The notes: generated from the sequence alone by a model not told the origin. Counted from the first letter of the stretch, positions 6,382-49,585 are shown. The stretch is DNA of 55,867 nucleotides from Candidatus Omnitrophota bacterium (GCA_043797665.1 JAZDPL010000060.1:1-55867), one strand, 5' to 3'. Made by a program: numbers and translations.

Positions 6382-6407
6382 TTTTGTGGGGGTTCAAACG
6401 TCAAAAA

Positions 6408-18354: not shown

Positions 18355-18371
18355 CTTTTGGAAAAGACGTT

Positions 18372-18421
18372 GTAGGGGCTTGATTTATCAAGCCCGCGGG
18401 TCGGATGAATCCGACCCCTAC
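18372..18421 (+). repeat. REP-like element R3 (gatgaatc variant), followed by atcaaattatttat
   Basis: Read directly. Confidence 0.8.
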
Positions 18422-18449
18422 ATCAAATTATTTATAAGAAAAGGAATTG

Positions 18450-22892: not shown

Positions 22893-22897
22893 TTTGG

Positions 22898-24294: not shown

Positions 24295-24402
24295 CATCCA
24301 TCTCCTGCTATTCTACTGTATCATACTCTCTAAAACCGTGTCAAGTGTCCGCATTGCGGGGAACATCGGCGATGTGGTAAAATATAGGGGTTGCCAAACA
24401 AG

Positions 24403-25839: not shown

Positions 25840-26096
25840 AATTGACTATTTGGAGTCCCGGATTTGAGATTAGTGCAAGGCGCGACGAAGGTTCTGTGCC
25901 CACTGTGGCACATAACCGAGGAGCAACGCCGCAATGACCCAAAGATGGGACTCCCCCCAAAGGGCCAGGCCGCTTTTGGGCTGCGACTGCGTCGCTCATT
26001 GCTCGCGTAGTACAGTGACTACGCAATCTTTTTTGCTCCTTGTCTCGCTCCAAAATCGCCTCTGGCAAATAGTTAATTTTATTGTTGAGCAACCCC
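25822..26096. mobile_element. MITE-like unit: ~31-bp terminal inverted repeats (25822-25852 and 26067-26096) flanking a 214-bp GC-rich insert between glgA and the GH57 gene
   Basis: ggggttgctcaacaataaaattgactatttg against caaatagttaattttattgttgagcaacccc, 1 mismatch. The left TIR contains the glgA stop codon. The right TIR ends 1 nt before the GH57 ATG. Confidence 0.5.
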
Positions 26097-26097
26097 T

Positions 26098-28146: not shown

Positions 28147-28157
28147 GGCATTCAAAA

Positions 28158-32639: not shown

Positions 32640-33557
32640 ATGCGACACATATTCGGACCGGTACCTTCCCGAAGGTTAGGGCTTTCGCTGGGAATTGACA
32701 TCATTCCGGCAAAGACCTGTACCCTCAACTGCGTTTACTGCCAGTTGGGACCGACCGCCTGTCCAACCCTGGAAAGAAAATCCTACGTCACCGCTAAAAC
32801 CATTTTAGCGGAAATCACCACCGTTCTGAAAAATAATCCGGCGATAGATTACCTTACCTTTTCCGGTTCCGGAGAACCAACCCTGAATTCTGAAATCGGT
32901 AAGATGATCGGCAAAATAAAAGAGATGACCCCGGTTCCGGTAGCGGTCATCACCAACGCTACCCTGCTTACCCGGAAAAAAGTCCGGCAAAGTTTATTTT
33001 CAGCCGATGTAGTCTTACCCTCTCTGGATGCGGTATCGGAACCGGTCTTCCGCCGCATCAACCGACCCCACCCGAATCTAAACCTAAAATCAATTATTGA
33101 AGGTCTGCGCCGGTTTGGAGAAGAATACCCCGGTAAAATCTGGCTTGAGGTAATGCTGGTAAAAGGAGTCAACGACTCTAATACCGAACTAAACAAGATA
33201 AGAGACGCTATTAAAACCATCCGGGTAGACAAGGTCCATCTGAATACGGTGGTGCGGCCGCCCGCGGAAAGAAGGGTTCAGCCCTTAAACCAAAAAGAAC
33301 TGGAAAAAGCAGCAAAAATTATCGCCAACCACTGCGAAATCATTGCGGAGTTTACTAAAAAACTACCCGGAAGTTTATCCGGAGACGAAAATACGCTTCT
33401 ATCTACTCTGAGACGCCGTCCCCTGACCCTGAAAGACATCGCCGCGGTTACCAACCTCACCCCGGTCAGACTGGTCAAAATTCTGGAAGGACTTACCGGA
33501 AAAGGTTTGGTGAAACAGAAGAGAGTCTCGGGGAAAACATATTACGTAGCCCCTTGA
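32640..33557 (+). CDS. radical SAM protein with C-terminal winged-helix domain, family unassigned
   Basis: CTLNCVYC CxxxCxxC motif close to the N-terminus (GPVPSRRLGLSLGID...). Confidence 0.7.
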   Translation: MRHIFGPVPSRRLGLSLGIDIIPAKTCTLNCVYCQLGPTACPTLERKSYVTAKTILAEITTVLKNNPAIDYLTFSGSGEPTLNSEIGKMIGKIKEMTPVPVAVITNATLLTRKKVRQSLFSADVVLPSLDAVSEPVFRRINRPHPNLNLKSIIEGLRRFGEEYPGKIWLEVMLVKGVNDSNTELNKIRDAIKTIRVDKVHLNTVVRPPAERRVQPLNQKELEKAAKIIANHCEIIAEFTKKLPGSLSGDENTLLSTLRRRPLTLKDIAAVTNLTPVRLVKILEGLTGKGLVKQKRVSGKTYYVAP

Positions 33558-33583
33558 CAAATCAGGGTAATTTAGGTATAATT
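33555..33583 (+). promoter_or_regulatory. consensus sigma70 promoter TTGACA-N17-TATAAT upstream of the regulator gene
   Basis: Both hexamers are perfect with a 17-nt spacer. ATG at 33613. Confidence 0.55.
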
Positions 33584-33612
33584 ATACATAAATACATTTA
33601 AATTAATCTTTT

Positions 33613-34737
33613 ATGGATAAAAATAGTGTCAATCCGCTTTATTACCAACTGAAGGATACGATTCGCCAGAAGGTAAGGGACGGCGAATATAAAGTTTCGG
33701 ATTTGATACCCTCTACCGCAGAGTTGTGTAAGATCTATAAGTTAAGCACCACTCCGGTCCGCCGGGCAATTTCGGAACTGATTGGTGAAGGGTTATTGAA
33801 GGGAATGCCTGGCAAAGGCACTTTCGTGGTCGCGGAGCAAAATCAAGTTAACCAAAAAGGAAACAGACTGGTTGGGGTCATCTTTACCGGTCCCACCACC
33901 CACCCTTTTTTTATGGATATACTCAACGGCATTGAAACCTTTTTAAACCCATTTGGTTATCATCTTATCGTAACAACCAGCAACAGTAACGCGGAAAAAG
34001 AGCGCCAGATTGTTTTGGAATTAAGAGAAAAGGGTGCCGAAGGTCTCATTTTAACCCCAGTAATAACAGTTAACCGGACACCCTCTGCGGACCAGGCCCT
34101 CAAGGAAGTCCTGGCGGAAGATTTTCCGCTGGTGTTTGTTGACAGTACCATTCCAGAAATTCAGGTGGACTATGTTACTACTAACAATGAAAAAGGTGGC
34201 TACCTGGCTACCCGACACCTGATAAAATTAGGACACTCCCGGATTGGATTTGTCCTGGGCATCAATATCAATACGGTTCAGGAAAGACTTGCCGGCTACC
34301 GGAGGGCTTTGAACGAATTCAATATTCCTTACGACCCTTTACTGGTAAAACACAGTTACCTGGAGTTGCAGTATGAGGACGCAGGCTATCAGAATACGAT
34401 GGACCTCCTCCACCTGGCAAACCCACCGTCTGCCATCTTTTCCTGTAACGATACGCTTGTTTTAGGTGTCTACCGTGCCTGCTGGGAATTAGGGAAAAGG
34501 ATTCCCGATGACATATCCGTGATTGGTTTTGACGACGTTTCGTACAGTGCGTTCCTCTGTCCCCCCCTTACCACCATCCATCAACCCAAGGTTGAGATGG
34601 GGCAGAAAGCCGCCGAACTTCTCTTAAACCTGATTCGGGGAGGGAAGAACAACCCGGCCCAGGTTATCCTGGACAACCATTTAGTGGAACGTTCTTCCTG
34701 TGCAACCTTAAGCAAAATAAAGGTAACAACAGAATAA
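33613..34737 (+). CDS. transcriptional regulator: N-terminal GntR-type HTH fused to a LacI/periplasmic-binding-protein-like sugar-binding domain
   Basis: The N-terminus ([41 protein letters not shown]) looks GntR-like. The C-terminal ~300 aa show PBP type 1 / LacI-like features. Confidence 0.8.
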
Positions 34738-34751
34738 TTAAGGAGGATAAT

Positions 34752-35456
34752 ATGGATTGGAAAAGGAAGGGATTGAAGAAAAAAATCGCGTTTACGTTAA
34801 TCGAGTTGCTGGTTGTCATCGCCATCATCGCTGTTCTGGCGGCGATGTTATTACCAGCGCTCAGTCAGGCCAGGGATAAGGCGAGAGCGGCGGGCTGCAT
34901 GAACAACTTAAAACAACTGGGACTATCTTTCTATCTCTACTTTCAGGACTACGACGAGTATTTTCCCCCTGCAACCCCTGCAAGCTACGCGAGTGTACTC
35001 GCAACAAATGGGTACGCTCCTATTATTACTGGCGACGGCAAGAAATCAGTTTTCCGATGTCCGTCGGATGTAAACGGTAATGGTAATTATAATGCGGGCT
35101 TGTACGGCTACAACATGGCTAATCTTTGTAACAACAGCGATACGTGGTACAGCGGAGGAGGGTATCACCCCTATAAACTGGGCCAGTGCACTCATCCGGA
35201 CGCCACGATTATGCTTACGGAAAGCAAGTGGACAGACGATACCTTTAAAAACAGGGGCCTTGCTATCATAGACCCTTTTCCCGGGAGTACCTACACTCTG
35301 TGTCTCATTCATAACAACAATACGGGTCTCAACATTCTCTGGGTGGATGGCCACGTTACCAACTACACCCCTCCCGATCCAAACAATGCGTATTCCGGAA
35401 TATTAGCCAACGGATGGCCTTCCGGAGGAGACAGCAATTACTGGGACATCTACTAA
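34752..35456 (+). CDS. prepilin-type N-terminal cleavage/methylation domain protein with C-terminal H-X9-DG motif (DUF1559-like)
   Basis: [28 protein letters not shown] class-III signal/pseudopilin N-terminus and C-terminal NILWVDGHV. Both are typical of the very large planctomycete/PVC DUF1559 family. Confidence 0.8.
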
Positions 35457-35471
35457 AACTGGATTTCAGAG

Positions 35472-36335
35472 ATGATGAAAAAGAGTAGAAATAATTGGTT
35501 GTTGGGTCTGATTATCTATTCTTCATTTGTAGGCTTGCATAATGTTTTTGCTGGTGAATTTAAACCGGATAAAAATACTTTATTCCTGGTTCATTTTAAC
35601 AAAGGGCTTAACGCCGATTATGCCCGGGGTTCTAAAGAAACTGCGATGACTGCGTCTCTTACAGAAAAAAATGGTGGATGTTGGGAAGAAGGATTGCTGG
35701 TAAAAGACGGGCTTACGATAACTCCGGAGGAAATGGAAGTATTGTATCGGCCACTGGGCTATAAGGCGAAAAACAGTTTTAATAGCCAAAGAGGCACAAT
35801 GGAACTCTGGGTAAAAGTTCTCAACTTCCCGAAGGATTTATCGAAAGAGAATGAGTTAGGTTTGATATCTATCTCTGACTGGAGAACGCTTCCTGGTCCG
35901 GAATGGGCTTTGGAAGGATGTACCGCTTATGGATACCTCGCCATCATATACAGCAACAAGGTTAAAAAAATCACCTTTACGGAATTTAGAAAAGAGGTAA
36001 AGTATGACCTTACCAATATCGGCACATTAGATGAGGACCGATTTCGTATTGATGCTGACGTAAAAAAATGGAAAACAGGCGAGTGGCACCATATTGCAGC
36101 CGCCTGGGATGCGGAGAACGACAGGCGAACATTATTTGTTGATGGAAAGAGAGTGGGCGAGGCAAAATTTAAGTACCCGGATAGGTTACTGGTGCCCAAC
36201 GCGACCGATATTGTAGTGGGTGGAATCTTTAAAAAGTCTCTCACCCCTTTCTCCTGCATGATAGATGAGGTAAGAATCTCTGATGTAGTCAGGTATACCG
36301 GCAATTTTATTCCAGAAAAAAGGGAGGGAAAGTGA
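35472..36335 (+). CDS. secreted LamG/concanavalin-A-like jellyroll protein, paralog 1
   Basis: Signal peptide and LamG_3-like motifs (WHHIAAAWD, LFVDGK, MIDEVRISDVVRY). 4-nt overlap with the downstream 937-aa gene. Confidence 0.7.
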   Translation: MMKKSRNNWLLGLIIYSSFVGLHNVFAGEFKPDKNTLFLVHFNKGLNADYARGSKETAMTASLTEKNGGCWEEGLLVKDGLTITPEEMEVLYRPLGYKAKNSFNSQRGTMELWVKVLNFPKDLSKENELGLISISDWRTLPGPEWALEGCTAYGYLAIIYSNKVKKITFTEFRKEVKYDLTNIGTLDEDRFRIDADVKKWKTGEWHHIAAAWDAENDRRTLFVDGKRVGEAKFKYPDRLLVPNATDIVVGGIFKKSLTPFSCMIDEVRISDVVRYTGNFIPEKREGK

Positions 36336-39145
36336 AGAAGAACAGATGGGTTGGGATGATGTTTCTTCTAATATTTTTAACCAGTATCGCCTCGGTTTAC
36401 GGTGGAGAAATAACCTTGAAGACCGAGGGTCTAATGGTCAAAGTAGACAGCACTGGTAAACTCAAGGTTACGGATTTAATAACGAATACTGAGGCAAAAA
36501 AGTACATAGATAGTTTTACCATTCTCAACGGCAAAAATAAGGATGAAGAACTGAATCCTGGCGCACCGGAAAAGACAGAACAGAGTGAGAACGGGTTCAA
36601 AAGTGTTTATCGCAACGTGGGTGGTTTTTTGAATATAACCCAGAGCTTTGAGAGAGCGGATAAGTTTATAAAGAGCACGATAGAAATTGAAAATACCGGT
36701 TCCGAACAGGCCTGGTTAAAAGTACGGTTCAATATGCCGGTGGTATCATCCACGGATAATTTAGTTTACTGGAACGGAAACAACCTCTACGAGGAAATCT
36801 TTGACGATTTAAAGAGAGAGGAACTGTTCAATACCTTTCCTATGGCCTGCGCCTACAGCAAAAAGAGCGGCGTGGCGGTTGGGATAGAAGCCCATCAGAT
36901 ATTTTCGCATATCGAGAACGGACTTCTTTACAATACCAACCAACCCGTTATCTACTACGGAGTAAAATTGGTAGTTGACCCCAAAAAAGTAAACAAGGTG
37001 GAATTTATAACCTATACCTTTAACCCTGATTATGGATATCTGAATGCGGTGGACAGTTACCAGAAGATATTTCCTGATATGTTTGGAGCGAAGACAGGGG
37101 TTGACAAAAGGGTTTATACCACCGCAATGACCACCTCGTCTCTCTATTATTACGAGGTACAGGGCCGTCCGGATTCGCTTTATATATCCCCGGAATTTCC
37201 CAGAAGGCATTTTGGAGGCTGGGTCTGGGGTTATGCTCCGGTCCAGGTCATTGGAGACTGGTACGGAACCAAGGAGATCACCGAAAATCCGGACCTGCAT
37301 TCCATGAAAGATGTGGAGTACGGCAGTTACGAAACATTCCAGAAGAATCGCAGGAAAGGTATTGAAGCCGCCAGTGTCAGGAATGCGGCCTATATGTTTT
37401 ATGTTATCAACTGGTGTGATAAAAAACTGGCGGATAAGTTTTATCCGGATTGTATCGTGACCGATAAGAATACGACCAATCTTTGCAATGGTTGGGTTTT
37501 AATGAACGATGCCGATTACCGGATGTGGTGCGGGGGGAATAAGTTCAGCCAGGACATGCAGAGAGATATTAAAAAGATAGCGGAGGAGTTGCCGATATCA
37601 GGTTTTTCGCTTGACTGTGTTTCCGGACCGGCTTTATGCCGGCAGACCGGTGTGGAAACGATGGAGGGCAAGGCTTACGACAGTGAAGGGGTGTACGCCA
37701 GAGAGGGGTCAGGGATGGCAAAGATGATGGATTATATCCACGGTCTGAAACGGGACGATAAGACAATGGGAATATCATCAAACCTGGCCGGTAATGCGCT
37801 TCAGTATTATGTGGCCATGAGAACCGACAATGCCCTGACAGACTGGGCATTTTCCGAGGCGCTGAACAATATTACGGCGGAGGAAATCCAGCGGTATCTG
37901 CTTGGAACACGACCACAGAACTGGTGTATTCTGATAGATAGTGAAAAATACGGCAGTACCTTGCCCTGGCAGGAATACAGCCCTGAGAAGATAAGGCAGA
38001 TATATAACAATATCCGGGATAACCTGATTCTATTTTCCTACCGGTTTGCCTATTTCCCACATCAAGCCTTAAGTTGGGGCAATGTGAAGATAATGAAGGC
38101 GATGCCTGTCTTTCAGAAATTAATTGCTGCCGGTTACCAGGTAATCCCGGCGGTAAAACTGAACGAAGACTTATGGCGGGCCCGGTATGGAAATGATTTG
38201 AACTCTTATCTCTTTATCGGCAACCAGAAGTTTACTGCCCAACAGATAACAGCAACCATAGACAACCGGTATCTTGGTAAAAGAGTATATCTCTTTTCGA
38301 AGTACGACGGGACTCCGGTTGATAACCTCATTGAAAATAACAAGACGGTCATCAACTATTCTTTAAAACCCAAGGAGCCGTTGATTCTTAAAGCTGTTCT
38401 GGGTATAAAAGATTGCGGAGGGGCTAAAGTTACCGGAAAAGCAGAAGAAGCCGGCGATATTAAGAGCGGAAGGGTAAAGATAAGTTTAAAGAGTACCAAA
38501 GGAATAAAGACGGAAATTTCCGTCAGGTTGCCCGAAGAAAATTCTGCAGTTGAGGTGAAGGTTAACGACCAGGCAATCGGTTTTAAATCCGGGGAAAGCA
38601 GGGTGGTCTTCGCCGCAACCCTGGGAACCGACAATAAAATAGAAGTTGGTTGGAAATCCAACCTCTTTCAAGTCTCTGAAGAACAGGTTCTGGCATACCA
38701 GTTTATTACTCCGGAGGGAAAATCAAGATGTACCATCGTAGTTGACGATGCGGCCGATGAAAATGATAATAATACTGCCTTCAGACTTCAGGAGTACTTT
38801 CGTTACTACTACGAAAAGGTCAAAAAGGACCCTGGCGTCAAAATACCGATTAAGAAAAAGTCTGAGGCTGGGGAATTAAAAAATGCGGTTTTAATCGGGA
38901 TAGACGCAAAATCAGGATATGGTATCAACATTTCAGCCGAGAATAATAACCTGGTCATCACCGCACCGGACAGTCTTACCCGTTTCGAAATGGTAAACAG
39001 ACTGATGATGGTCCTGGATAAGAAATATGTCTATTACGGAGTTATCGGGGACCCGGCAGATGCTAATGTCTATACCCGGGATCCGGCAACCCAGAAGATG
39101 CGGGAAAAAGCTGGTTTAGGGGTGGGAACAGTCTGGGAAGAATAA
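36332..39145 (+). CDS. large secreted protein (937 aa), function unknown, candidate glycan-active enzyme; paralog A
   Basis: Signal peptide. No motif that I can assign to a family. The central region has TIM-barrel-like strand motifs (ISGFSLDCVSG). Paralog of 40086-42911. Confidence 0.7.
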   Translation: MKKNRWVGMMFLLIFLTSIASVYGGEITLKTEGLMVKVDSTGKLKVTDLITNTEAKKYIDSFTILNGKNKDEELNPGAPEKTEQSENGFKSVYRNVGGFLNITQSFERADKFIKSTIEIENTGSEQAWLKVRFNMPVVSSTDNLVYWNGNNLYEEIFDDLKREELFNTFPMACAYSKKSGVAVGIEAHQIFSHIENGLLYNTNQPVIYYGVKLVVDPKKVNKVEFITYTFNPDYGYLNAVDSYQKIFPDMFGAKTGVDKRVYTTAMTTSSLYYYEVQGRPDSLYISPEFPRRHFGGWVWGYAPVQVIGDWYGTKEITENPDLHSMKDVEYGSYETFQKNRRKGIEAASVRNAAYMFYVINWCDKKLADKFYPDCIVTDKNTTNLCNGWVLMNDADYRMWCGGNKFSQDMQRDIKKIAEELPISGFSLDCVSGPALCRQTGVETMEGKAYDSEGVYAREGSGMAKMMDYIHGLKRDDKTMGISSNLAGNALQYYVAMRTDNALTDWAFSEALNNITAEEIQRYLLGTRPQNWCILIDSEKYGSTLPWQEYSPEKIRQIYNNIRDNLILFSYRFAYFPHQALSWGNVKIMKAMPVFQKLIAAGYQVIPAVKLNEDLWRARYGNDLNSYLFIGNQKFTAQQITATIDNRYLGKRVYLFSKYDGTPVDNLIENNKTVINYSLKPKEPLILKAVLGIKDCGGAKVTGKAEEAGDIKSGRVKISLKSTKGIKTEISVRLPEENSAVEVKVNDQAIGFKSGESRVVFAATLGTDNKIEVGWKSNLFQVSEEQVLAYQFITPEGKSRCTIVVDDAADENDNNTAFRLQEYFRYYYEKVKKDPGVKIPIKKKSEAGELKNAVLIGIDAKSGYGINISAENNNLVITAPDSLTRFEMVNRLMMVLDKKYVYYGVIGDPADANVYTRDPATQKMREKAGLGVGTVWEE

Positions 39146-39170
39146 TTCATTCAAAAACAGGAGAGGTTTT

Positions 39171-40058
39171 ATGGACAAGAGATGGTTTTTCTGGATGTTC
39201 GTGGCTGGAGTTTTGTTGGTAAATGGTCAGGTTAACGCCGAGTTCAAGCCGGACAAGAACACGACTTTACTGTTTCATTTTAATAAGGGGTTTACGGCTG
39301 ATTACGCCACGGGTGAAAGAAGTGGCACCGGGACAGCTGCGCTGACCCAAAACAACGGCGGCTACTGGGGCGAAGCGCTGATAGCCAAGAAAGGGTTATG
39401 CGTCAATTCCGACGGTCTGGAGGTTATGTACAAATGGTTGGAATATAAGGCACAGAACAATTATGATAGTAAAAAAGGGACGATTGAGTTGTGGGTAAAA
39501 CTTTTGAAAACCCCTTCAGAAATCGTGAGCGAAAAAGAGACAGAGAAATTTGCCCAAATGGTTCTGATATCCATAATCAAGTGGGACCAGCATGGGCAGC
39601 AATCTAACTGGGCAACACTGATGATTGATTACAACTTTTACGAAACACCGCAGTGGAAGGTTACTGTGTATGAAAGCAAAAAGGAACAGGATGTCTTTGT
39701 AGATGGCCAAGTCTGGAGTGAACTGTATCGTAACCGATTCCACTTAGATTACGACATCGTAGGCTGGAATAAAGAGGTATGGCACCATATTGCGTTTACC
39801 TGGGATGCGGAACAGAATACCAGAGCCTTATTTGTTGACGGTAAAAAGATTGGCACCGGGAATTCGAAGTATGAGGACAAATTCCAGGAACTGGTTCCAG
39901 AAGCAGGACGTCTCCTTGTTGGTGGGTATTTCAGTGACAATACGATGAATCTTCCCTGCGTGATTGATGAGGTACGGATTTCCAACATTGTCAGATATAC
40001 CGAGGATTTTGTACCGCCATCCCAAAAAGTTGGTGGGGCTGAGGATAAAGAGCAGTAG
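39171..40058 (+). CDS. secreted LamG/ConA-like jellyroll protein, paralog 2
   Basis: WHHIAFTWD, LFVDGK, VIDEVRISNIVRY. About 40% identical to paralog 1 and ~88% to paralog 3. Confidence 0.7.
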   Translation: MDKRWFFWMFVAGVLLVNGQVNAEFKPDKNTTLLFHFNKGFTADYATGERSGTGTAALTQNNGGYWGEALIAKKGLCVNSDGLEVMYKWLEYKAQNNYDSKKGTIELWVKLLKTPSEIVSEKETEKFAQMVLISIIKWDQHGQQSNWATLMIDYNFYETPQWKVTVYESKKEQDVFVDGQVWSELYRNRFHLDYDIVGWNKEVWHHIAFTWDAEQNTRALFVDGKKIGTGNSKYEDKFQELVPEAGRLLVGGYFSDNTMNLPCVIDEVRISNIVRYTEDFVPPSQKVGGAEDKEQ

Positions 40059-40085
40059 TTTTCGCTCTAAGTAGAAGGAGGAGAA

Positions 40086-42911
40086 ATGAAAAAGTTCTGG
40101 GTATTCGGGGCGGTAATATTATGGTTTTTGGCTGGTTTTTGTGATGCGGCAGTCTCGGCCGGCGGAGAAGTTACACTAAAAACGAGTGGGTTAACTATCA
40201 AGGTTAACAGTGAGGGAAAGATTAAGGTGAATGATCTGATTGACGGGACTGAATCAAAAGAGTATATAAACAGTTTTACCATTCTCAACGGCAAAAATAA
40301 GGATGAAGAGCTGAATCCTGGCGCACCGGAAAAGATAGAACAAAGTGAGAACGGTTTCAAAAGTGTTTATCACAACGTGGGTGGCTTTTTAAATATAACG
40401 CAAAGTTTTGAAGCCGCGGGTAATTTTATCAAGAGCACGATAGAGGTTGAAAATACCGGTTCCGAACAGGCATGGTTAAAAGTACGGTTCAATATGCCGG
40501 TGGTATCATCCACGAATAATTTAGTTTACTGGAACGGAAATAACCTCTACGAGGAAATTTTTGACGATTTAAAGAGAGAGGAGCTGTTCAATACCTTTCC
40601 TATGGCCTGCGCCTACAGCAAAAAGAGCGGCGTGGCGGTTGGAATAAACGCCCACCAGATATTCTCATATATTGAGAACGGGCTTCTTCATAGTACCCCC
40701 TCCCCTGTTATCTACTACGGAGTAAAACTGGTGGTTGACCCCAAAAAAGTAAACAAGGTGGAATTTATAACCTATACCTTTAACCCCGACTATGGATATC
40801 TGAATGCGGTGGACAGTTACCAGGAGATATTTCCGGATATGTTTGGAGCGAAGACCGGGGTTGACAAAAGAGTTCATACCACCGCAAAAACCACCTCGTA
40901 TCTCTATTATTACGAGATATGGGAGCATCGTTTGGAATCGCTTTACCTATCCCCGGAATTCCCCAGAAGGCATTTGGGAGGCTGGGTCTGGGGATATGCT
41001 CCGGTCCAGGTCATTGGAGACTGGTACGGAACCAAGGAAATCACCGAAAATCCGGACCTGCATTCCATGAAAGATGTGGAATACGGCAGTTACGAAGCAT
41101 TTCAGAAGAACCGCCGGAGAGGTATTGAAGCGGCCAGAGTAAGAGATGCGGCTTATATGTTTTATGTTAGCAACTGGTGTGATAAAAAACTGGCTGATAA
41201 GCTTTATCCGGATTGTATCGTGACCGATAAGAATACGACCAATTTGCTTTATGGTTGGACCTTAGGAAATGATGCCGAACATCGAATGTGGGTTTGGGGA
41301 AACGCTTTGGGCCGGGATATGATGAGGGACATTAAAAAGATAGCGGAAGAGTTACCGGTATCCGGCTTTTCGCTTGACTGTGTTTCCGGGCCGGGGATAT
41401 GCCGGCAGACCGGCGTGGAGACGATGGAAGGCAGGGCTTACGACGGTGAAGGCGTGTACGCCAGGGAGGGGTCCGGGATGGCAAAGATGATGGATTATAT
41501 CCACGGACTGAAAAGGGACGGGAAGACGATGGGGATATCATCAAACCTGGCTGGTAATGCGATTCAATATTATGTGGCCATGAGAACAGACAATGCCCTG
41601 ACAGACGCGGCATTTTCCGAAGCACTGAACAATATTACGACGGAGGAAATCCAACGGTATTTACTCGGAACACGGCCCCAGAACTGGTGTATCCTCATAG
41701 ACAACGAAAAGTACGGCAGTACCCTACCCTGGCAGGATTACAGTCCTGAAAAGACAAGGCAGATATATAATAACATTCGGGATAACCTGATTCTATTTTC
41801 CTACCGGTTTGCTTATTTCCCGAATTACGCCTTAAGTTGGGGCAATGTGGCGATAATGAAGGCGATGCCTGTCTTTCAGAAATTAATTGCGGCCGGTTAC
41901 CAGGTAATCCCGGCGGTAAGGCTGAATGAAAACCTGTGGCGGGCTCGTTACGGAAAGGGACTAAACTCTTATCTCTTTATCGGTAACCAGAAGTTTACTG
42001 CCCAACAAGTAACGGCCACGATAGATAACCGGTATCTTGGCCCGGGAGTTTATCTCTTTTCGAAGTACGACGGGACTCCTATTAATAACATCATGGAAAA
42101 TAATAAAACGACTGTCAGTTATTCTTTAAAACCCAAGGAACCGTTGATTCTAAAAGCCGTTCTAAACATAAAAGATTGCGGAGGGGCTAAAGTTACCGGG
42201 AAAGCAGAAGAGACCGGCGATATTCAGAGCGGAAGAATAAAGATAAGTTTAAAAAGTACAAAAAGCATAAAGACGGAAATTTCCGTCAGGGTACCCGAAG
42301 AAAGTTCTGCAGTTGAGGTTAAGGTTAACAACCAGGCAATCGATTTTAAATCCGGGGAAGGTAAGGCAGCCTTCACCGCAACTCTGGGAACCGACAATAA
42401 AATAGAAGTTGGTTGGAAATCTAACCTCTTTCAGGTTTCTGAAGAACAGGTCCTGGCATACCAGTTTATTACTCCGGAGGGAAAATCAAGATGTATCATC
42501 GTAGTTGACGATGCGGCCGATGAAAATGATAATAATACTGCCTTCAGACTTCAGGAGTACTTTCGATACTATTACGAAAAGGTCAAAAAAGACCCTGGCG
42601 TCAAAATACCGATTAAGAAAAAGTCCGAGGCTGGGGAATTAAAGAATTCGGTTTTAATCGGGATAGACGCAAAATCAGGATACGGTATCAACATTTCAGC
42701 AGACAATAATAACTTAACCATCACCGCACCGGATAGTCTTACCCGTTTCGAAATGACAAACAGACTGATGATGGTCCTGGATGAGAAGTACCCCTATTAC
42801 GGAGTTATTGGAGACCCGGGGGCAAAAGATGGTAATAACTATACTCAGGATCCGGCTACTCAGAAGATGCGGGAAAAGGCTGGTTTAGGAGTGGGAACAA
42901 TCTGGGAATAA
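40086..42911 (+). CDS. large secreted protein (941 aa), paralog B of 36332-39145
   Basis: About 85-90% aa identity to paralog A, with a localised divergent patch. Signal peptide present. Confidence 0.7.
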   Translation: MKKFWVFGAVILWFLAGFCDAAVSAGGEVTLKTSGLTIKVNSEGKIKVNDLIDGTESKEYINSFTILNGKNKDEELNPGAPEKIEQSENGFKSVYHNVGGFLNITQSFEAAGNFIKSTIEVENTGSEQAWLKVRFNMPVVSSTNNLVYWNGNNLYEEIFDDLKREELFNTFPMACAYSKKSGVAVGINAHQIFSYIENGLLHSTPSPVIYYGVKLVVDPKKVNKVEFITYTFNPDYGYLNAVDSYQEIFPDMFGAKTGVDKRVHTTAKTTSYLYYYEIWEHRLESLYLSPEFPRRHLGGWVWGYAPVQVIGDWYGTKEITENPDLHSMKDVEYGSYEAFQKNRRRGIEAARVRDAAYMFYVSNWCDKKLADKLYPDCIVTDKNTTNLLYGWTLGNDAEHRMWVWGNALGRDMMRDIKKIAEELPVSGFSLDCVSGPGICRQTGVETMEGRAYDGEGVYAREGSGMAKMMDYIHGLKRDGKTMGISSNLAGNAIQYYVAMRTDNALTDAAFSEALNNITTEEIQRYLLGTRPQNWCILIDNEKYGSTLPWQDYSPEKTRQIYNNIRDNLILFSYRFAYFPNYALSWGNVAIMKAMPVFQKLIAAGYQVIPAVRLNENLWRARYGKGLNSYLFIGNQKFTAQQVTATIDNRYLGPGVYLFSKYDGTPINNIMENNKTTVSYSLKPKEPLILKAVLNIKDCGGAKVTGKAEETGDIQSGRIKISLKSTKSIKTEISVRVPEESSAVEVKVNNQAIDFKSGEGKAAFTATLGTDNKIEVGWKSNLFQVSEEQVLAYQFITPEGKSRCIIVVDDAADENDNNTAFRLQEYFRYYYEKVKKDPGVKIPIKKKSEAGELKNSVLIGIDAKSGYGINISADNNNLTITAPDSLTRFEMTNRLMMVLDEKYPYYGVIGDPGAKDGNNYTQDPATQKMREKAGLGVGTIWE

Positions 42912-42933
42912 TATTTTCGAATAGGGAGGGGAT

Positions 42934-43827
42934 ATGCGGAGAAGAATAGTTTTTTTAGGGTTGGTAGTTATGGGAATGTGGCTGACAAAGAGTATAGCCA
43001 GCGGCGGTGAGTTTAAACCAGACAAGAACACAACCTTTCTGGTTCACTTCAACGAAAAGTTTGAGGCAGACTACGCCACAGGTGAAAGGGGAGGCACCGG
43101 GACAGCTGCGCTGACCCAAAACAACGGCGGCTACTGGGGTGAAGCGCTGATAGCCAAAAAAGGGTTATGCGTCAATACCGACGGTCTGGAAATGATGTAC
43201 AGGTGGTTGGAATATAAAGCCCAGAACAACTATGATAGTAAGAAGGGGACGATTGAGTTGTGGGCAAAACTTTTGAAAAACCCTTCAGAAATCGTGAGCG
43301 AAAAAGAAACGGAGAAATTTTCCCAGATGGTTCTGGTAGCCATAAGCAAGGGGGACCAGCATGGCCAACACAGTAACTGGGCGATGCTGATGATTGATTA
43401 CAACTTTCACGAAATACCGCAGTGGAAGGTTACTATGCTTGAAAGCAAAAAGGAGCAGGATGTCTTTGTAGATGGCCAAGCCTGGAGTGAACTGTATCGT
43501 AACCGATTCCACTTAGATTACGACATCGCAGACTGGAATAAAGAGGTATGGCACCATATTGCGTTAACCTGGGATGCGGAACAAAATACCAGAGCCTTAT
43601 TTATTGACGGTAAAAAGGTGGCAACGGGAAGATCTAAATACGAAGACCGTTTCCAGGAACTGGTTCCAGAGGCAAAACGTTTATTTGTTGGTGGGTATTT
43701 CAGTGACAATTCGATGAACCTTCCTTGTGTGATAGATGAAGTGCGTATTTCCAACATTGTCAGATATACCGAGGACTTTGTACCGCCATCCCAAAAAGTT
43801 GATGGGGCTGAGGGTAAAGAACAGTAG
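42934..43827 (+). CDS. secreted LamG/ConA-like jellyroll protein, paralog 3
   Basis: Near-duplicate of 39171-40058. Confidence 0.7.
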   Translation: MRRRIVFLGLVVMGMWLTKSIASGGEFKPDKNTTFLVHFNEKFEADYATGERGGTGTAALTQNNGGYWGEALIAKKGLCVNTDGLEMMYRWLEYKAQNNYDSKKGTIELWAKLLKNPSEIVSEKETEKFSQMVLVAISKGDQHGQHSNWAMLMIDYNFHEIPQWKVTMLESKKEQDVFVDGQAWSELYRNRFHLDYDIADWNKEVWHHIALTWDAEQNTRALFIDGKKVATGRSKYEDRFQELVPEAKRLFVGGYFSDNSMNLPCVIDEVRISNIVRYTEDFVPPSQKVDGAEGKEQ

Positions 43828-43855
43828 GTTTCGCTCTAAGTAATGAGGGAGGAAT

Positions 43856-45106
43856 ATGGTCGGAGAAAGAAACAAGGTTTCTTTTTTGCGGACAGGTCTA
43901 ACGACCGGAATTTTGGTTCTTTCGCTTCTGGTTAATTATGCCCGGGCAGATTGCCGGATAAGTAAAGGGAAAGAGGATAGATGGGAAGCAATTGTCCTTG
44001 AAAACGACTATATCCGGGTTAAGGTATTGCCGGAATCGAACGGTAGAATAGCGGAATATATCCTGAAAGGCGCCGGAGGGGAAAGGAAGTTCTTCCCGAA
44101 GATGGTCTTCAAAACCTTTGAAATTATGCCGGATGTCGAAACGATACTGGAGACAAATTTTTCCGGACTTGAAGATTGGATATGGGAAGTTGGTCTAACA
44201 AAGCAATATCTGAAATACCAGAGTAAAATTTTGGAAAAGAGTAAGGAGAAATCTTCGGTGGAACTGTCTCTGGCTGGCAGCGAGTACCGGATAATAAAAA
44301 CCGTCAGCATCTTTAAGGACAGTTCCGAAGTAGCGATACAGGTCAAATTGGTAAACCGGACGTCGGAGAAGAAAATCGGTTCCTACTGGCCGCATACCTG
44401 CATCGCCCTGGACGGAGTAATAGACAACGATAATACGAGGATATATGTTCCGATGAACCCGTCAACAAATCTGGAAAGGCGAAAAGGCCTGTATCTCCAG
44501 AAGATTGAGCAAGAGACTGTTTACAGCCGGAAGGTCAGTGACCGGGGAAAAGATAATGGTTCGGACTTTTTTGCCCCGGCCCAGGAATGGTGGGCGATGG
44601 TCAAAGATAATCTGGTCCTGGGTATGCTGGTTCCCCTTTCCGAAACAGACCGGGATGGGATGTACTACTCCTGGTCTGGTCCGGCGGGTCTTTCGATGGA
44701 GTTAATTTATAACTCTTATGAGTTTTTACCCGGGCAAGAACAAATTTACCATCTGAGTTTCGTATCCACCGAAGGGTTAGATTCGATAGATTATATCAAC
44801 AAGTACATAACTTTGGCGGTGGGAAGAGAAAAGGTGAAAGTAATCGGCGACGTGGTAACCGTACCGATTAAGATAAGCGGCGTTCGGAAAATCTCGAATT
44901 ATCGTTTGGAACTGATTGCCATCGATAAAAATGGAAACGAAATAACAAAGGGGGTAATCGAAATTTCAGAACTGACACCGATAAAAGTCATCGAAAAAGA
45001 GGTTGCTCTAAAGGGAATTAAGGATAAAGGATACGGATTAAAGTTCCGGTTATACGACAGCAAGGGAACCAAAATAGATGAAAACAAACTCCTGGGGATT
45101 TTCTAA
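43856..45106 (+). CDS. hypothetical secreted protein (416 aa)
   Basis: Hydrophobic N-terminus with a Cys near the predicted cleavage site. No recognised motif. Confidence 0.55.
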   Translation: MVGERNKVSFLRTGLTTGILVLSLLVNYARADCRISKGKEDRWEAIVLENDYIRVKVLPESNGRIAEYILKGAGGERKFFPKMVFKTFEIMPDVETILETNFSGLEDWIWEVGLTKQYLKYQSKILEKSKEKSSVELSLAGSEYRIIKTVSIFKDSSEVAIQVKLVNRTSEKKIGSYWPHTCIALDGVIDNDNTRIYVPMNPSTNLERRKGLYLQKIEQETVYSRKVSDRGKDNGSDFFAPAQEWWAMVKDNLVLGMLVPLSETDRDGMYYSWSGPAGLSMELIYNSYEFLPGQEQIYHLSFVSTEGLDSIDYINKYITLAVGREKVKVIGDVVTVPIKISGVRKISNYRLELIAIDKNGNEITKGVIEISELTPIKVIEKEVALKGIKDKGYGLKFRLYDSKGTKIDENKLLGIF

Positions 45107-45108
45107 AG

Positions 45109-47199
45109 ATGGATACAAAAAAGAATCGGAAATTCATTGACGGGTTCAATCCGGAAAAGTTTTTGGTGGCGTTAGAAACGCCCAATATGGACCTGGATAC
45201 ACCTGAGATGCAATACATCATCAAGCACAAGATGTGCAATGCCTTTGACTGGTGGCCGTACCTTACCAACGAACAGGTCAACTTTCTGAAGAAGAATCCA
45301 TCCTACGGATTATCTCTCTTCCTACCCGCTGCAACCCAAATTCTAAAAATATACAAAGAAAATACTATCGTAGGCAGGAGGATTGAGCCAACAAAAACTT
45401 TTGTCGCTAAAGAGTTGAAAAAACTGGAAGAGTTGACGCCGGTTCTGAATGGAAATGTCTGGTGGGACGCTTTCCCGGAATGCGATTCCTCAGGTTACGA
45501 GTTCCCCGGAGAGATTTATGCCAAAAGGTTAAGGTTCAAATCCCGGGTTGACGCTTACCAGAAACTAAAGAGTTATATCCTTAACCAGAACATATTCCGG
45601 GACTTCAGGAAAAGGAAAAAGTCTTTACCAAAAGTTATGGCTATATCCGGTCTAATGGCAGTGACGCCTTACCTTTACGAATGGGGTATGGACCTTGGCC
45701 TGGTCGAGATCTGTATTGATTCGCTTTCAGACATTCATCCGGTGATTGCGATGCAGCGGGGAATAGCCAGACAGTACAACAAGAAATGGGGATTAGACAT
45801 ATCTCACTGGAGAATGGTGGGTCCGACGATGTACAATGACAAGATGCAGCTGATATCCGGCTGGTCGGAGAATTATCTGGAGCGAAATCTGTATCTCGCT
45901 TATATGTCTGGAGCCAATTTTATACGGATTGAAGAGGTGGTAAGCCGCAATGAAACCACCAGTACCGGAGAAGCAGGTAAAAACTGCGCCTTTGTTTTAA
46001 GCCCGGACAAAAAGACGGCGATACCAACACCACTGGGTCGGATGCTGGAGAAGTTTACCCGCTTTACCCTCAGCCATGGAAAAGAACGGGGCGAGACCTA
46101 TGTTCCGGTAGCGCTGATGATAGACTACTACAGCGGATGGCAGCCTAAAAGCAACTTTAAAAAGGATGATACGGTATGGTTTGGCCAGATTCCCTTCAAC
46201 GACGGTGATTATATGCTCGACAATTTCATGAACCTCGTCTACGAAGGGTACCATCGTTCGGGAACCATGGATGGAGCCCCTTACGCTATCGCCAAGGATT
46301 ACGATTACACACTCTGGGAAGGTTTTCAGGAAAGAAAAGCGACGGCAATCTACGAAAAGTTACTTTCAGAAGGGTTCGATGCCAGGCCATACGAATCTAT
46401 CAGTACCGCGATATTCGGAGACAGTTTCGATTTTGTCCTTTCCAACGCAACCTGCGAAATCCTTAAAAAATATAAAGCAGTAATTCTACTGGGAGAGATA
46501 AAGATACGTCCCAAATTAGCAGCCGAAATCGTCCACTATGTAGAAGATGGGGGTACGCTGGTAATAAATGTAAAGCAGAGTGCGGCTTTTGACCGGTCTT
46601 TTCTGGGAGTATCTATCAGCCGGGAGGTCAAGGAAGATAACAGTTCGAAATGTTTAGCCTGTGGTCACCATTTTGGAGAAAGTTTTAAGGATGGAAATAA
46701 CGAGGAGCCCTGGTACCAATATCCCGTTGTTAAACCTTTAACCGCAAAAGGTATCGCCAAAAACGACTTGGGCGATTTTTTGCTAACCGAAAACAGGTAC
46801 CGTAAAGGCAGGGTGATTCTTGATGCGCCATACTACGGATATGGTAAGAGGAATAAAAAGAGTGCGGTACGGATAGTCAAACATTATATTCACCACCTGA
46901 TGGACGAAATGGCACTGGTCGAAATCGAAGGTAAAGATATTACCTATATTATTAACCGGAAAAAGGATGGGTTCCGATTGATGTTGTTGAACAACCACAA
47001 CTATGCCTGGTCAGGTACCATCAAAGTACATACCGGCAGAAGATGCCGGGTTATCGACCTACTCGGACAAAAAAGAGTTTCCGCAGGTTATTCAGACGGG
47101 AAACTTTCATTCAAACAAGAAATAGAACCTTTCTGTTTCATTCTCTGCGACATTTCTTCGAAGGGGGACAAAGGATGCTGTCACGTGAAAGAGTCCTGA
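45109..47199 (+). CDS. hypothetical cytoplasmic protein (696 aa); C-terminal region resembles the GATase1-like/beta-galactosidase-trimerisation-type domain
   Basis: No signal peptide. AVILLGEIKIRPKLAAEIVHYVEDGGTLVI is reminiscent of DJ-1/PfpI-like domains found in GH42-type proteins. This assignment is weak. Confidence 0.55.
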   Translation: MDTKKNRKFIDGFNPEKFLVALETPNMDLDTPEMQYIIKHKMCNAFDWWPYLTNEQVNFLKKNPSYGLSLFLPAATQILKIYKENTIVGRRIEPTKTFVAKELKKLEELTPVLNGNVWWDAFPECDSSGYEFPGEIYAKRLRFKSRVDAYQKLKSYILNQNIFRDFRKRKKSLPKVMAISGLMAVTPYLYEWGMDLGLVEICIDSLSDIHPVIAMQRGIARQYNKKWGLDISHWRMVGPTMYNDKMQLISGWSENYLERNLYLAYMSGANFIRIEEVVSRNETTSTGEAGKNCAFVLSPDKKTAIPTPLGRMLEKFTRFTLSHGKERGETYVPVALMIDYYSGWQPKSNFKKDDTVWFGQIPFNDGDYMLDNFMNLVYEGYHRSGTMDGAPYAIAKDYDYTLWEGFQERKATAIYEKLLSEGFDARPYESISTAIFGDSFDFVLSNATCEILKKYKAVILLGEIKIRPKLAAEIVHYVEDGGTLVINVKQSAAFDRSFLGVSISREVKEDNSSKCLACGHHFGESFKDGNNEEPWYQYPVVKPLTAKGIAKNDLGDFLLTENRYRKGRVILDAPYYGYGKRNKKSAVRIVKHYIHHLMDEMALVEIEGKDITYIINRKKDGFRLMLLNNHNYAWSGTIKVHTGRRCRVIDLLGQKRVSAGYSDGKLSFKQEIEPFCFILCDISSKGDKGCCHVKES

Positions 47200-48344
47200 A
47201 GACGCTCAGGCATGAGGAACCGGACATCGTTCCCTGGGGGGAACACTCCATTGACTACAACATCTACGAACAAGTGTTGGGCAGAGAGACGTTGGTTTCC
47301 GCCAAAATCAGGCAGGTTAAGGCCCTATGGGAAGGCCGGCGAAATGAAGTGGTCACATCCTATAAACGGGATATTATTGGCCTGGCCGAAGCGCTCGGTT
47401 TTGACATTATCATGGCTCCCCTGATGCCCTCGGTCAAGGAAGAACAGAAGCCCATGGAACGGGTAGACAAGGATACCTACCGCGACGAAAAGGGAAATCT
47501 CTACCGGGTCTCTTCCGTAACCAATGACTTGATGCCCTTCAAAATGAATCCGGAGGCTTTCAGACCGCCCACCCTGGAAAGTATTAAGGAAGAACTAAAC
47601 GAACTTGAACGCAGCGGCGTTCCGGAACCGGACGAATCATCCTGGGAAGTTGTAAGACACATCATTAAAGAAAAGAAGAAGACCCATTTCATATTCACCT
47701 TCTGGGGAGGACCACAATTGCCCTCGTTCGGACAGACCGATGAAGATTTTTATGTCAACCTTATTTTACACCCGGAAATGCATGAGGCAATTGCTGAATT
47801 GCAGGGAAAAAGGTCCATCGCCAGCCTGAAATATGCCGCAAAGCAAGGTGTAGATGCCATTATGTATTGCGCTGACCTCGGCTCTTCCACCGGGCCGCTG
47901 TTCAACCCGAAAATATTCAAGGAGCACGTTCTGCCCTGGGAGAAAAAATACGTTGCCGAAGCTCACCGCCTGGGACTTTTTGTCATCAAGCACTGCTGCG
48001 GGATGGTCTGGGACTTTGTCGACACCTTCGTGGAGGCCGGGTTCGATGCTTACGAAGGCATCCAGGCCAGCGCCGGGATGGATATGAAACTGTTAAAAGA
48101 GAAAGTGGGTAATAAATTAACCCTTTGGGGCGGCGTTAAAAACGAAAATCTGATTCTGGGGACACCGGACGACGTCAGAGCCGATGGCCGGTATGCCATC
48201 AAGTGGGGAGCGCCGGGCGGCGGATTCATTTACGGCGCCAGCCATTCGCTGGCGGTTGGCACCAAACCGGAAAACCTTGCCGCTATGAAAGAAACCCTCC
48301 AACGCTGGGGGATGTATCCGGTAACAGGCGCCGGAACTTTTTAG
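47172..48344 (+). CDS. uroporphyrinogen-decarboxylase-like (URO-D-like) family protein, third copy in window
   Basis: Start set at MLSRERV, with SD aaggggga upstream. C-terminal motifs as in 10769-12963 (LTLWGGV, IYGASHSL). Overlaps the preceding gene by 28 nt. Confidence 0.7.
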   Translation, partial: RMLSRERVLKTLRHEEPDIVPWGEHSIDYNIYEQVLGRETLVSAKIRQVKALWEGRRNEVVTSYKRDIIGLAEALGFDIIMAPLMPSVKEEQKPMERVDKDTYRDEKGNLYRVSSVTNDLMPFKMNPEAFRPPTLESIKEELNELERSGVPEPDESSWEVVRHIIKEKKKTHFIFTFWGGPQLPSFGQTDEDFYVNLILHPEMHEAIAELQGKRSIASLKYAAKQGVDAIMYCADLGSSTGPLFNPKIFKEHVLPWEKKYVAEAHRLGLFVIKHCCGMVWDFVDTFVEAGFDAYEGIQASAGMDMKLLKEKVGNKLTLWGGVKNENLILGTPDDVRADGRYAIKWGAPGGGFIYGASHSLAVGTKPENLAAMKETLQRWGMYPVTGAGTF

Positions 48345-48367
48345 GGACATCAGATGGAGGATTCGGA

Positions 48368-49558
48368 ATGAAATATCTAAACATTGGCGTTATTGGAGTC
48401 GGCGGCCGCGGAGGGCTGGCTGACCACGCGCACAAACCGAAAGAAGGTGTAAAAATTGTCGCCGGGGCCGACATCAGCGATAAGTTTCTGACGGAATTCA
48501 AAGAAAAATACGGACCGGAAACATTTATTACCAAAGACTATCGGCAAATGCTGGTGCGACCTGAAATAGGTGCGGTTTTTGTCACTTCGCCGGATTTCAT
48601 GCATGAAGAACACGCGATTGCTGCGTTGGAGACGGGAAAATCGGTTTACCTGGAAAAACCGATGGCAATTACCATTGAGGGTTGCGACCGGATTCTGCAA
48701 ACCGCTTTCCGGAAAAAGGTTAAGTTATATCTCGGCCACAACATGCGCCACATGACTTTTATCCTGAAAATGAAAGAACTGATTGATAAAGGCGCAATCG
48801 GCGAAGTAAAATCCGGCTGGTGCCGGCATTTTGTCTCCTACGGTGGGGACGCCTATTTCAAGGACTGGCACGCGGAAAGGTCCAAGGCGACCAGTTTGCT
48901 GCTTCAAAAAGGCGCGCACGACATAGACATCCTGCACTGGCTCTGCGGCGGTTACACCAGCCGCGTTACCGCTCTGGGCGGGCTTACCCTTTACGATAAG
49001 ATAACCGACCGCCATACCCCTTCGGAACGCGGAGATAAGAGTTGGCGCCTGGAAAACTGGCCGCCGCTTTCACAAAAAGGATTGAACCAGATTATTGACG
49101 TGGAAGATATAAGCATGATGCTAATGCAGTTGGATAACGGCGTTTTTGCCTCCTACCAGCAGTGTCACTATACGCCGGACGGCTGGCGGAATTACACCAT
49201 CATCGGAACCGAAGGCAGGATAGAGAATTTCGGGGATAACCCCGGGGAGTGTGTGGTGCGTCTCTGGAACAGGCAGAAATACTATAATCCTTACGGAGAT
49301 GAGCAATACTTTATTCCCTCGGTGGTCGGCAGTCACGGCGGGGCAGACCCCAGCATCGTGGCCGAATTCATACGCTACGTCCGGGAAGACGGCAAGATTT
49401 CCACCTCGGCAATCGCGGCCCGCAACAGCGTGGCCGCCGGCTGCCTGGCCGCCCATTCGCTCCGCAACGGCGGCATACCCATGGAAGTCCCGAAAGTACC
49501 GGAAGAAATAATTGCCTATTTTGATACCGACGTGGCAAACCCTGCACCCGCCAACTGA
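48368..49558 (+). CDS. Gfo/Idh/MocA-family oxidoreductase
   Basis: Start set at MKYLNIGVIGVGGRGG (Rossmann), with SD ggagga upstream. EKP motif present. Confidence 0.85.
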   Translation: MKYLNIGVIGVGGRGGLADHAHKPKEGVKIVAGADISDKFLTEFKEKYGPETFITKDYRQMLVRPEIGAVFVTSPDFMHEEHAIAALETGKSVYLEKPMAITIEGCDRILQTAFRKKVKLYLGHNMRHMTFILKMKELIDKGAIGEVKSGWCRHFVSYGGDAYFKDWHAERSKATSLLLQKGAHDIDILHWLCGGYTSRVTALGGLTLYDKITDRHTPSERGDKSWRLENWPPLSQKGLNQIIDVEDISMMLMQLDNGVFASYQQCHYTPDGWRNYTIIGTEGRIENFGDNPGECVVRLWNRQKYYNPYGDEQYFIPSVVGSHGGADPSIVAEFIRYVREDGKISTSAIAARNSVAAGCLAAHSLRNGGIPMEVPKVPEEIIAYFDTDVANPAPAN

Positions 49559-49585
49559 CCGACAATCATACCCTCACTAATACCC

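Follow-up and report, generated by a model that had tools for sequence, protein, structure and literature searches.

The window analysed here is a 55,867-nucleotide (nt) contig from a Candidatus Omnitrophota metagenome-assembled genome (MAG; locus tags V2A65_077xx). Open reading frame (ORF) calling revealed eleven co-oriented ORFs between positions 33613 and 49558, all on the + strand (Table 1). They encode a regulator, a DUF1559 pseudopilin-like protein, two large secreted paralogs of a family without annotation (X937 and X941, together referred to as X), three small secreted LamG proteins, two further proteins termed Y416 (or Y) and Z, a URO-D-like protein and a Gfo/Idh/MocA protein. We consider it reasonably probable that these genes form one operon, inducible by sugar, for the catabolism of a complex glycan, with its products divided between two cell compartments.

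The spacings from gene 1 to gene 11 were, in order, 14, 15, -4, 25, 27, 22, 28, 2, -25 and 23 nt, once the starts of genes 10 and 11 had been corrected. The URO-D-like start was set to 47175 (MLSRERV...), matching the start of the 80%-identical ortholog in locus L004, and that of the Gfo/Idh/MocA protein to 48368 (MKYLNIG...), the Rossmann start. An earlier interpretation made from the DNA alone (the sequence-only reading) had described an eleven-gene, + strand run with tight spacing, and the ORFs are indeed present, spaced by -25 to +28 nt. Most of its domain assignments were borne out by Pfam, which gave GntR helix-turn-helix plus Peripla_BP_3/1, N_methyl plus DUF1559, PF13385 three times, URO-D and Gfo/Idh/MocA.

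Table 1. Coordinates of the promoter elements and genes of the operon in the window
Feature	Coordinates	Strand	Basis or relation
Sigma-70-type promoter TTGACA-17-TATAAT	33554..33582	+	12/12 consensus match
Near-perfect palindrome ATTTAGGTATAAT/ATTATACATAAAT, candidate operator	33570..33593	n/a	92% complementary, overlaps -10 box
Regulator, AraR-type architecture, 374 aa	33613..34737	+	PF00392 + PF13377/PF00532
DUF1559 prepilin-type pseudopilin-like protein, 234 aa	34752..35456	+	PF07963, PF07596
LamG-A, secreted, 287 aa	35472..36335	+	PF13385
X937, secreted, 937 aa, candidate glycosidase	36332..39145	+	family without annotation
LamG-B copy 1, secreted, 295 aa	39171..40058	+	PF13385
X941, tandem paralog of X937	40086..42911	+	87% amino-acid identity
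LamG-B copy 2, secreted, 297 aa	42934..43827	+	82% identical to copy 1
Y416, secreted, 416 aa	43856..45106	+	weak DUF5107/DUF4380 signal
Z, 696-aa protein	45109..47199	+	homolog in L001 cassette, 39%
URO-D superfamily protein, remotely MtaA-like, 389 aa, no signal peptide	47175..48344	+	HCCG motif
Gfo/Idh/MocA NAD(P)-dependent sugar dehydrogenase, 396 aa, no signal peptide	48368..49558	+	Pfam, NCBIfam

The promoter sits ~30 nt upstream of the regulator ATG and is the sole full consensus match within 33300-49800 (16.5 kb), in agreement with the consensus sigma70 promoter that the sequence-only reading had placed ahead of the run. The palindrome that overlaps its -10 box spans 24 nt, with a GTATAA/TTATAC core and ATTT...AAAT flanks. 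We take the GT...AC form of this core to be that of GntR-family operators, and by its sequence and position the palindrome would be a candidate autoregulatory operator for the GntR-type regulator. The regulator itself matched PF00392 at residues 9-72 and PF13377/PF00532/PF13407 at residues 87-363, its effector domain being RbsR/PurR-like according to NCBIfam. The proposal of a sugar-sensor-type regulator of the GntR/LacI kind was therefore confirmed by Pfam, with an N-terminal GntR winged helix and a C-terminal LacI/GalR-type domain. No riboswitch was detected in the operon by an Rfam scan.

The X family and its LamG partners

The sequence-only reading had described two ~940-aa secreted paralogs alternating with three small LamG proteins, and both the gene order and the identities in Table 1 agree with that description. 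The X937-X941 pair showed a synonymous divergence (dS) of 0.45 and a ratio of nonsynonymous to synonymous divergence (dN/dS) of 0.18, and the two LamG-B copies a dS of 0.44 and a dN/dS of 0.25. The equal dS of both pairs (0.44-0.45) indicates that the X-LamG-B unit was duplicated as a block, and purifying selection acts on both copies of the unit. LamG-A shares just 43% identity with the LamG-B pair; there is a 4-nt overlap between its stop and the X937 start.

When 1.84 billion representatives were scanned in full with a HMMER profile, 419 sequence clusters were assigned to the X family at E<=1e-3, 242 of them also at E<=1e-30; the family size is to be read as a lower bound (at least 419). 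Members are mostly 900-950 aa long, and the named ones, which come from Lentisphaerota and Omnitrophota, bear only the label 'hypothetical protein'. A word-index protein search found only 2 relatives, with the single sequence as with the 84-sequence profile (one homolog, at 49% identity), against the 419 clusters found by HMMER; for proteins of this type, orphan status judged by a word-index search alone can badly mislead.

The sequence-only reading had recognised no catalytic motif of a named CAZy family in the large proteins, and neither the 937- nor the 941-aa protein matched Pfam or NCBIfam. Similarly, no recurrent catalytic family was found in 43 X members with Pfam at E<=10, and the only accessory domains were PF13385 in 4 of them, CBM9 in 1-3, and PEP-CTERM or S-layer domains. 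In an alignment of 84 members, W299, D428, G525 and G601 were 100% conserved, as was an acidic residue (D/E) at position 504, followed by D499 (97%) and N484 (96%); R618 and N631 were also conserved. The invariant D428 is the Asp of the FSLDCVSG motif, to which the sequence-only reading had already drawn attention.

Foldseek aligned the N-terminal ~300 residues of X to the N-domains of GH94 and GH65, the P1 domain of YidC and aldose 1-epimerases, which points to a galactose-mutarotase-like supersandwich. The beta-sandwich that follows the core weakly resembles the middle domain of GH127, and a weak match (hhalign E 9e-4, probability 22%) relates the C-terminal alpha/beta domain to the GH67N-like N-domain of a DUF4838 protein. 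Between them, a crude Chou-Fasman-type method gave a beta/alpha alternation at residues 295-600. We infer that the ~340-aa central domain may be a glycosidase domain of the (beta/alpha)8 type, and X937 and X941 are probably catalytic subunits, glycosidases using D428, D499 and E504.

To place X in its genomic context, 12 distinct X-homolog loci were collected; a locus search with 12 X sequences gave 6 genome loci and 2 metagenome loci. Loci L005 (Lentisphaerota) and L007 (Victivallales) each contain, in this order, pseudopilin, LamG-A, X, LamG-B and Y genes. The order in the Armatimonadota chromosome locus L008 is pseudopilin, LamG-B, Y and X, followed by GH2, GH42, an ortholog (52% identity) of the Gfo/Idh/MocA gene next to GH42, GH28-like, GH1 and DUF4838 genes. 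In L011 (Kiritimatiellae), Y is accompanied by an X with a C-terminal LamG fusion and by GH123 and GH42-like genes, while L001 carries Z, LamG-A and X; X adjoins a GH20 gene in L015 and lies near a GH42 gene in L009 (an 8.2-Mb genome). The Omnitrophota locus L017 combines X with DUF1559 pseudopilins, GH2-like, CBM9, two MttB-family, GFO and AP_endonuc_2 genes. The core cassette of pseudopilin, LamG-A, X, LamG-B and Y therefore recurs in Lentisphaerota, Victivallales and Armatimonadota, and in part in Kiritimatiellae. The sequence-only reading had made its case depend on gene order being conserved in related genomes; the order is kept in other phyla, and the case stands on this point. A 198-aa protein in L004, a 668-aa fragment in L018 and other unannotated neighbours were considered as Y or X homologs and rejected.

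The three LamG proteins of the window scored 46.4, 42.4 and 38.9 bits against PF13385 (cut-off 27.6), matching only the C-terminal half of the domain. Immediately upstream of X, loci L001, L005 and L007 encode LamG-A orthologs (45%, 33% and 37% identity, respectively); LamG-B orthologs follow X in L005 and L007 and precede Y and X in L008. In addition, some X proteins carry a member of this LamG subfamily as a fusion, C-terminal in P0027, P0087, P0130 and L011 and N-terminal in P0051 and P0074. The ends at which the fusions occur mirror the positions of the separate LamG-B and LamG-A genes, which is strong evidence of a physical or functional coupling between X and LamG. LamG-A and LamG-B are most likely substrate-binding or specificity subunits of X.

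These same modules could also be read, though we think this unlikely, as belonging to a lectin-type X. LamG domains, mutarotase-like sandwiches and beta-sandwiches are typical binding modules, no catalytic family was recognised in X or Y, some members carry PEP-CTERM or S-layer domains, and a specific pseudopilin subfamily co-occurs with them. However, the strict conservation of Asp, Asn and Arg residues in the ~340-aa central domain suits an active site better than a lectin, the beta/alpha alternation is that of a barrel (by a crude method), and X stands in the place of a glycosidase among the exo-glycosidases of L011, L015 and L008.

Companion proteins and flanking genes

The pseudopilin was above cut-off for PF07963 (28.9 bits; cut-off 21.2), PF07596 (40.9; 23.3) and TIGR02532 (22.4; 16.3), so that the DUF1559 pseudopilin named in the sequence-only reading was recovered with both its N-methylation motif and its DUF1559 body; its N terminus also matches the GspG/ComGC models of NCBIfam. 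Genes of the X family adjoin related pseudopilin genes in two loci, L008 (37% identity between the pseudopilins, E 3e-27) and L017 (E 2e-29), and a pseudopilin was found within 10 kb of X in 7 of the 12 loci. The protein probably links the module, if we may speculate, to a type II secretion system or pseudopilus for export or surface presentation.

Y416 gave a marginal N-terminal match to DUF5107 (PF17128; 25.9 bits, cut-off 24.4) over profile positions 13-67 of 310 (55 residues). The signal was also weak among five Y orthologs, two of which matched DUF5107 and one DUF4380; we take both domains to be members of the galactose-mutarotase-like clan. The Y profile had no PDB relative and no detectable similarity to X. 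The orthologs share 26-28% identity, and all five retain the Cys (Cys33 of Y416) that directly follows the signal peptide, which could point to a lipoprotein or to a conserved disulfide bond. The context of this Cys is lipobox-like in L008 (FSAC) and L011 (VASC), and Asp or Glu occupies position -1 in the others. Y homologs adjoin X in L005, L007, L008 and L011, and Y416 would be a secreted accessory protein, possibly carbohydrate binding.

Z lacks a signal peptide. It matched no Pfam or NCBIfam family, and its PDB sequence matches were at chance level only (E > 1). By fold, however, it has the GH42/GH164/GH35-IaSGT architecture, with the three domains of GH42 (TIM barrel, trimerisation domain and beta-sandwich), although neither PF02449 nor PF08532, the sequence families of GH42, was matched. 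E200 and E275, invariant and at predicted strand ends, are candidates for the acid/base Glu after beta-4 and the nucleophile Glu after beta-7 of clan GH-A, and D339 and D367 are also conserved. Z differs from the GH42 beta-galactosidases, the GH164 beta-mannosidase and the GH35 IaSGT (clan GH-A) in sharing only 10-15% identity with them, and in an E200-E275 spacing (75 residues) shorter than that of GH42 and GH164. A 66%-identical Z homolog is followed by the URO-D-like ortholog in L004, and remote members of the family occur as fusions with PF13385, CBM9 or a type IX secretion system (T9SS) tail. The sequence-only reading had left both the 416- and the 696-aa proteins unassigned: this no longer applies to the latter, for which a glycosidase architecture was obtained by fold, whereas for the former only the marginal DUF5107 match can be offered.

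The two genes that close the run had been named correctly in the sequence-only reading, as both the URO-D-like protein and the Gfo/Idh/MocA oxidoreductase are borne out by Pfam. The URO-D-like protein scored 80.6 bits against PF01208 (cut-off 23.9, E 1e-22), a superfamily model only; it remained far below the equivalog cut-offs for HemE (TIGR01464; 14.9 against 303) and MtaA/CmuA (43-60 against 235-400). It shares the PF01208 fold with the MtaA/MtbA methylcobamide:coenzyme M methyltransferases, and its best NCBIfam and PDB relatives are of the MtaA type. A KHCCG (H-x-C) motif lies at the place that we take to be the zinc site of MtaA-type enzymes, and a GASHS sequence lies ~77 residues past it, where presumably the second Cys ligand of MtaA would sit. 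In L017 (MAG GCA_023819375.1), homologs of the MttB family (PF06253) are encoded at 5553-6950 and 17490-18866. The association of this MttB pair with X, DUF1559 pseudopilins, GFO and AP_endonuc_2 parallels the URO-D/MtaA-like gene of the window and, by analogy, hints at methyl-group chemistry.

The Gfo/Idh/MocA protein matched PF01408, PF02894 and PF22725, as expected for a generic sugar dehydrogenase, and no Sec or TAT signal could be read in its N terminus (MKYLNIGVIGVGGRGG). Its best PDB relatives include the C-glycoside 3-dehydrogenase DgpA, a glucuronide 3-dehydrogenase and inositol dehydrogenases, and it scored 59.5 bits against the BT_2158 glycoside 3-dehydrogenase family (NF058561), whose cut-off is 750.

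The combination of this protein with jelly rolls in one operon recalls the 3-keto-glycoside pathway of BT2156-BT2160 and Agrobacterium, in which case the dehydrogenase would oxidise C3 of a glycoside and the LamG proteins would hydrolyse the 3-keto-glycoside in the manner of DUF1080. The ConA-like jelly roll is common to LamG and DUF1080, and the presence of DgpA and the glucuronide 3-dehydrogenase among the PDB relatives fits the same idea. A precedent is BT2157, a DUF1080 protein that hydrolyses 3-keto-trehalose and whose operon also encodes MviM-like dehydrogenases (PMC8121099). Nevertheless, we consider oxidative cleavage highly improbable for the window operon. PF06439 (DUF1080) was unmatched by all seven LamG proteins tested (three from the window plus four orthologs) even at E<=10, and only PF13385, PF02210 and Pentaxin were returned. 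Signal peptides are present on the LamG proteins and absent from the dehydrogenase, which places the two in different compartments, the jelly rolls being exported and the dehydrogenase cytoplasmic. Moreover, the dehydrogenase falls far short of the BT_2158 family, LamG travels with and fuses to X rather than the dehydrogenase, and the operon contains neither a xylose-isomerase-like lyase nor an epimerase, nor any sugar-phosphate isomerase/epimerase-type partner. On these grounds, the suggestion of the sequence-only reading that the LamG proteins could be DUF1080-type processing enzymes found no support.

The genes that flank the operon are housekeeping genes: upstream lie those for a radical-SAM/winged helix-turn-helix protein, prephenate dehydrogenase, glycogen synthase and a GH57 enzyme and downstream, on the opposite strand, Fic and RlmN. 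As these are unrelated to the operon, the limits of the unit were set at 33554-49558. The radical-SAM protein (32640-33557) has a MarR-like winged helix fused at its C terminus, and its reading frame ends within the -35 box from which the operon promoter starts; at the other end, a Fic/DOC-family gene (49586-50650, - strand) converges on the operon. Positions 24391-29303 hold an apparently unrelated glycogen-metabolism cluster (GT5 glycogen synthase, GH57 enzyme and DUF1015 protein). The GC content dips to 0.415 at 1-2000 and to 0.394 at 22001-24000, against ~0.48 elsewhere in the window, and the second dip spans an Amidase_3 gene and a PD40-repeat gene.

A candidate glycan operon and its relation to known systems

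In the model that we favour, the sugar-sensing regulator would switch on secreted depolymerising or binding proteins together with cytoplasmic finishing enzymes, probably repressing its own consensus promoter through the -10 palindrome until a released sugar binds. The seven exported proteins (pseudopilin, LamG-A, the two X-LamG-B copies and Y) would constitute the degradative module, with X937 and X941 as its catalytic subunits, each working with small LamG-A and LamG-B jelly-roll partners. As judged from gene content, a glycan context is supported by the GH2, GH42, GH1 and DUF4838 genes of L008, GH123 in L011, GH20 in L015, GH42 in L009 and the CBM9 fusions. By analogy with such loci, the substrate is suggested to be a beta-galactoside and/or a hexosamine-containing heteroglycan.

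X could also be a different sort of enzyme, for instance an esterase, a polysaccharide lyase or a hydrolase of some non-glycan polymer (lipid head group, peptide), the operon then processing a conjugate and not a plain polysaccharide. The poor model of the X central domain leaves room for such a fold, the neighbours include MttB-family methyltransferases, amidohydrolases and peptidases (L017, L019) and a ceramidase-like protein (L002), and the window operon itself encodes a URO-D/MtaA-like protein. We nonetheless regard this as unlikely, since glycoside hydrolases are the most consistent neighbours, the regulator bears a LacI-type sugar-binding domain, the CBM9 and LamG fusions point to carbohydrate, and the N-terminal domain of X resembles those of glycoside hydrolases and phosphorylases.

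Several observations weigh against the catabolic glycan operon. X gave no match to Pfam, NCBIfam or PDB, either as a single sequence or as an 84-sequence profile. The AlphaFold2 model of X937, built from a three-sequence alignment, was poor (mean predicted local distance difference test score [pLDDT] 40, ~25 in the central domain) and reasonably confident only at residues ~25-135 and 640-775, and the secondary-structure method reached 59% accuracy on a control. The catalytic domains of GH94, GH65 and GH116 are (alpha/alpha)6 and not TIM barrels; since these families share the N-domain fold of X, the barrel of X could be of either type. Separate or detected fused LamG partners accompany X in 6 of the 12 loci and Y homologs in only 5 of 12. 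The substrate proposal derives from the neighbours of homologous cassettes in other phyla, and the operon has no transporter, which leaves uptake unexplained. Finally, no corrinoid protein was seen among the annotated ORFs of the window, and any part that the URO-D-like protein might play in methyl transfer is a speculative guess.

The catabolic glycan operon nevertheless retains part of what the sequence-only reading had proposed, namely an uncharacterised multi-component glycan system: the unit appears sugar regulated and partly secreted, its central families are without annotation and its relatives have glycoside hydrolase neighbours, while the DUF1080-type role of LamG found no support. 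Cultures are lacking for Omnitrophota and for many PVC-group bacteria, and known CAZy families are almost the sole basis on which their carbohydrate metabolism has been deduced. Here, a recurrent cassette with clear boundaries brings together a family of at least 419 clusters and two further unannotated families, one with a confident glycosidase fold, and it thus provides concrete targets for enzymologists seeking new glycoside hydrolase families. It is also a test case for separate LamG proteins as glycosidase subunits and a defined genetic context for asking what function DUF1559 pseudopilins, which these phyla have in great abundance, really serve. Titles and abstracts on DUF1559, URO-D in glycan loci, pseudopilin plus LamG and Omnitrophota glycoside hydrolases contained no description of such a cassette.

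At the level of regulation, the closest parallel is Bacillus subtilis AraR, whose architecture is a GntR winged helix joined to a LacI/GalR effector domain. The window regulator has the same chimeric arrangement, with Peripla_BP_1/3 at its C terminus, and the putative operator, with its ATTT...AAAT flanks, overlaps the promoter and is comparable to AraR boxes; the assignment is by architecture. X resembles GH94, GH65 and GH116 (and, by architecture, GH31/GH36/GH97) in its succession of an N-terminal mutarotase-like domain, a large conserved central domain and beta-sandwiches. Unlike those enzymes, it has a central domain without sequence or profile similarity to theirs, carries the C-terminal alpha/beta domain weakly like GH67N/DUF4838 N-domains, and would depend on separate LamG partners.

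As a whole, the operon is comparable to the polysaccharide-utilisation-type operons of the PVC group and, functionally, to the polysaccharide utilisation loci (PULs) of Bacteroidota, in that a sugar-sensing regulator stands over secreted and cytoplasmic proteins and homologous cassettes lie among GH2, GH42, GH20 and GH123 genes. It differs from PULs in having no SusC/SusD pair and no transporter, in core proteins (X, Y and Z) that fall in no annotated family, and in having a DUF1559 pseudopilin as a fixed companion. It is therefore not a new kind of system but an unannotated variant of a glycan utilisation locus, with up to three candidate new carbohydrate-active families.

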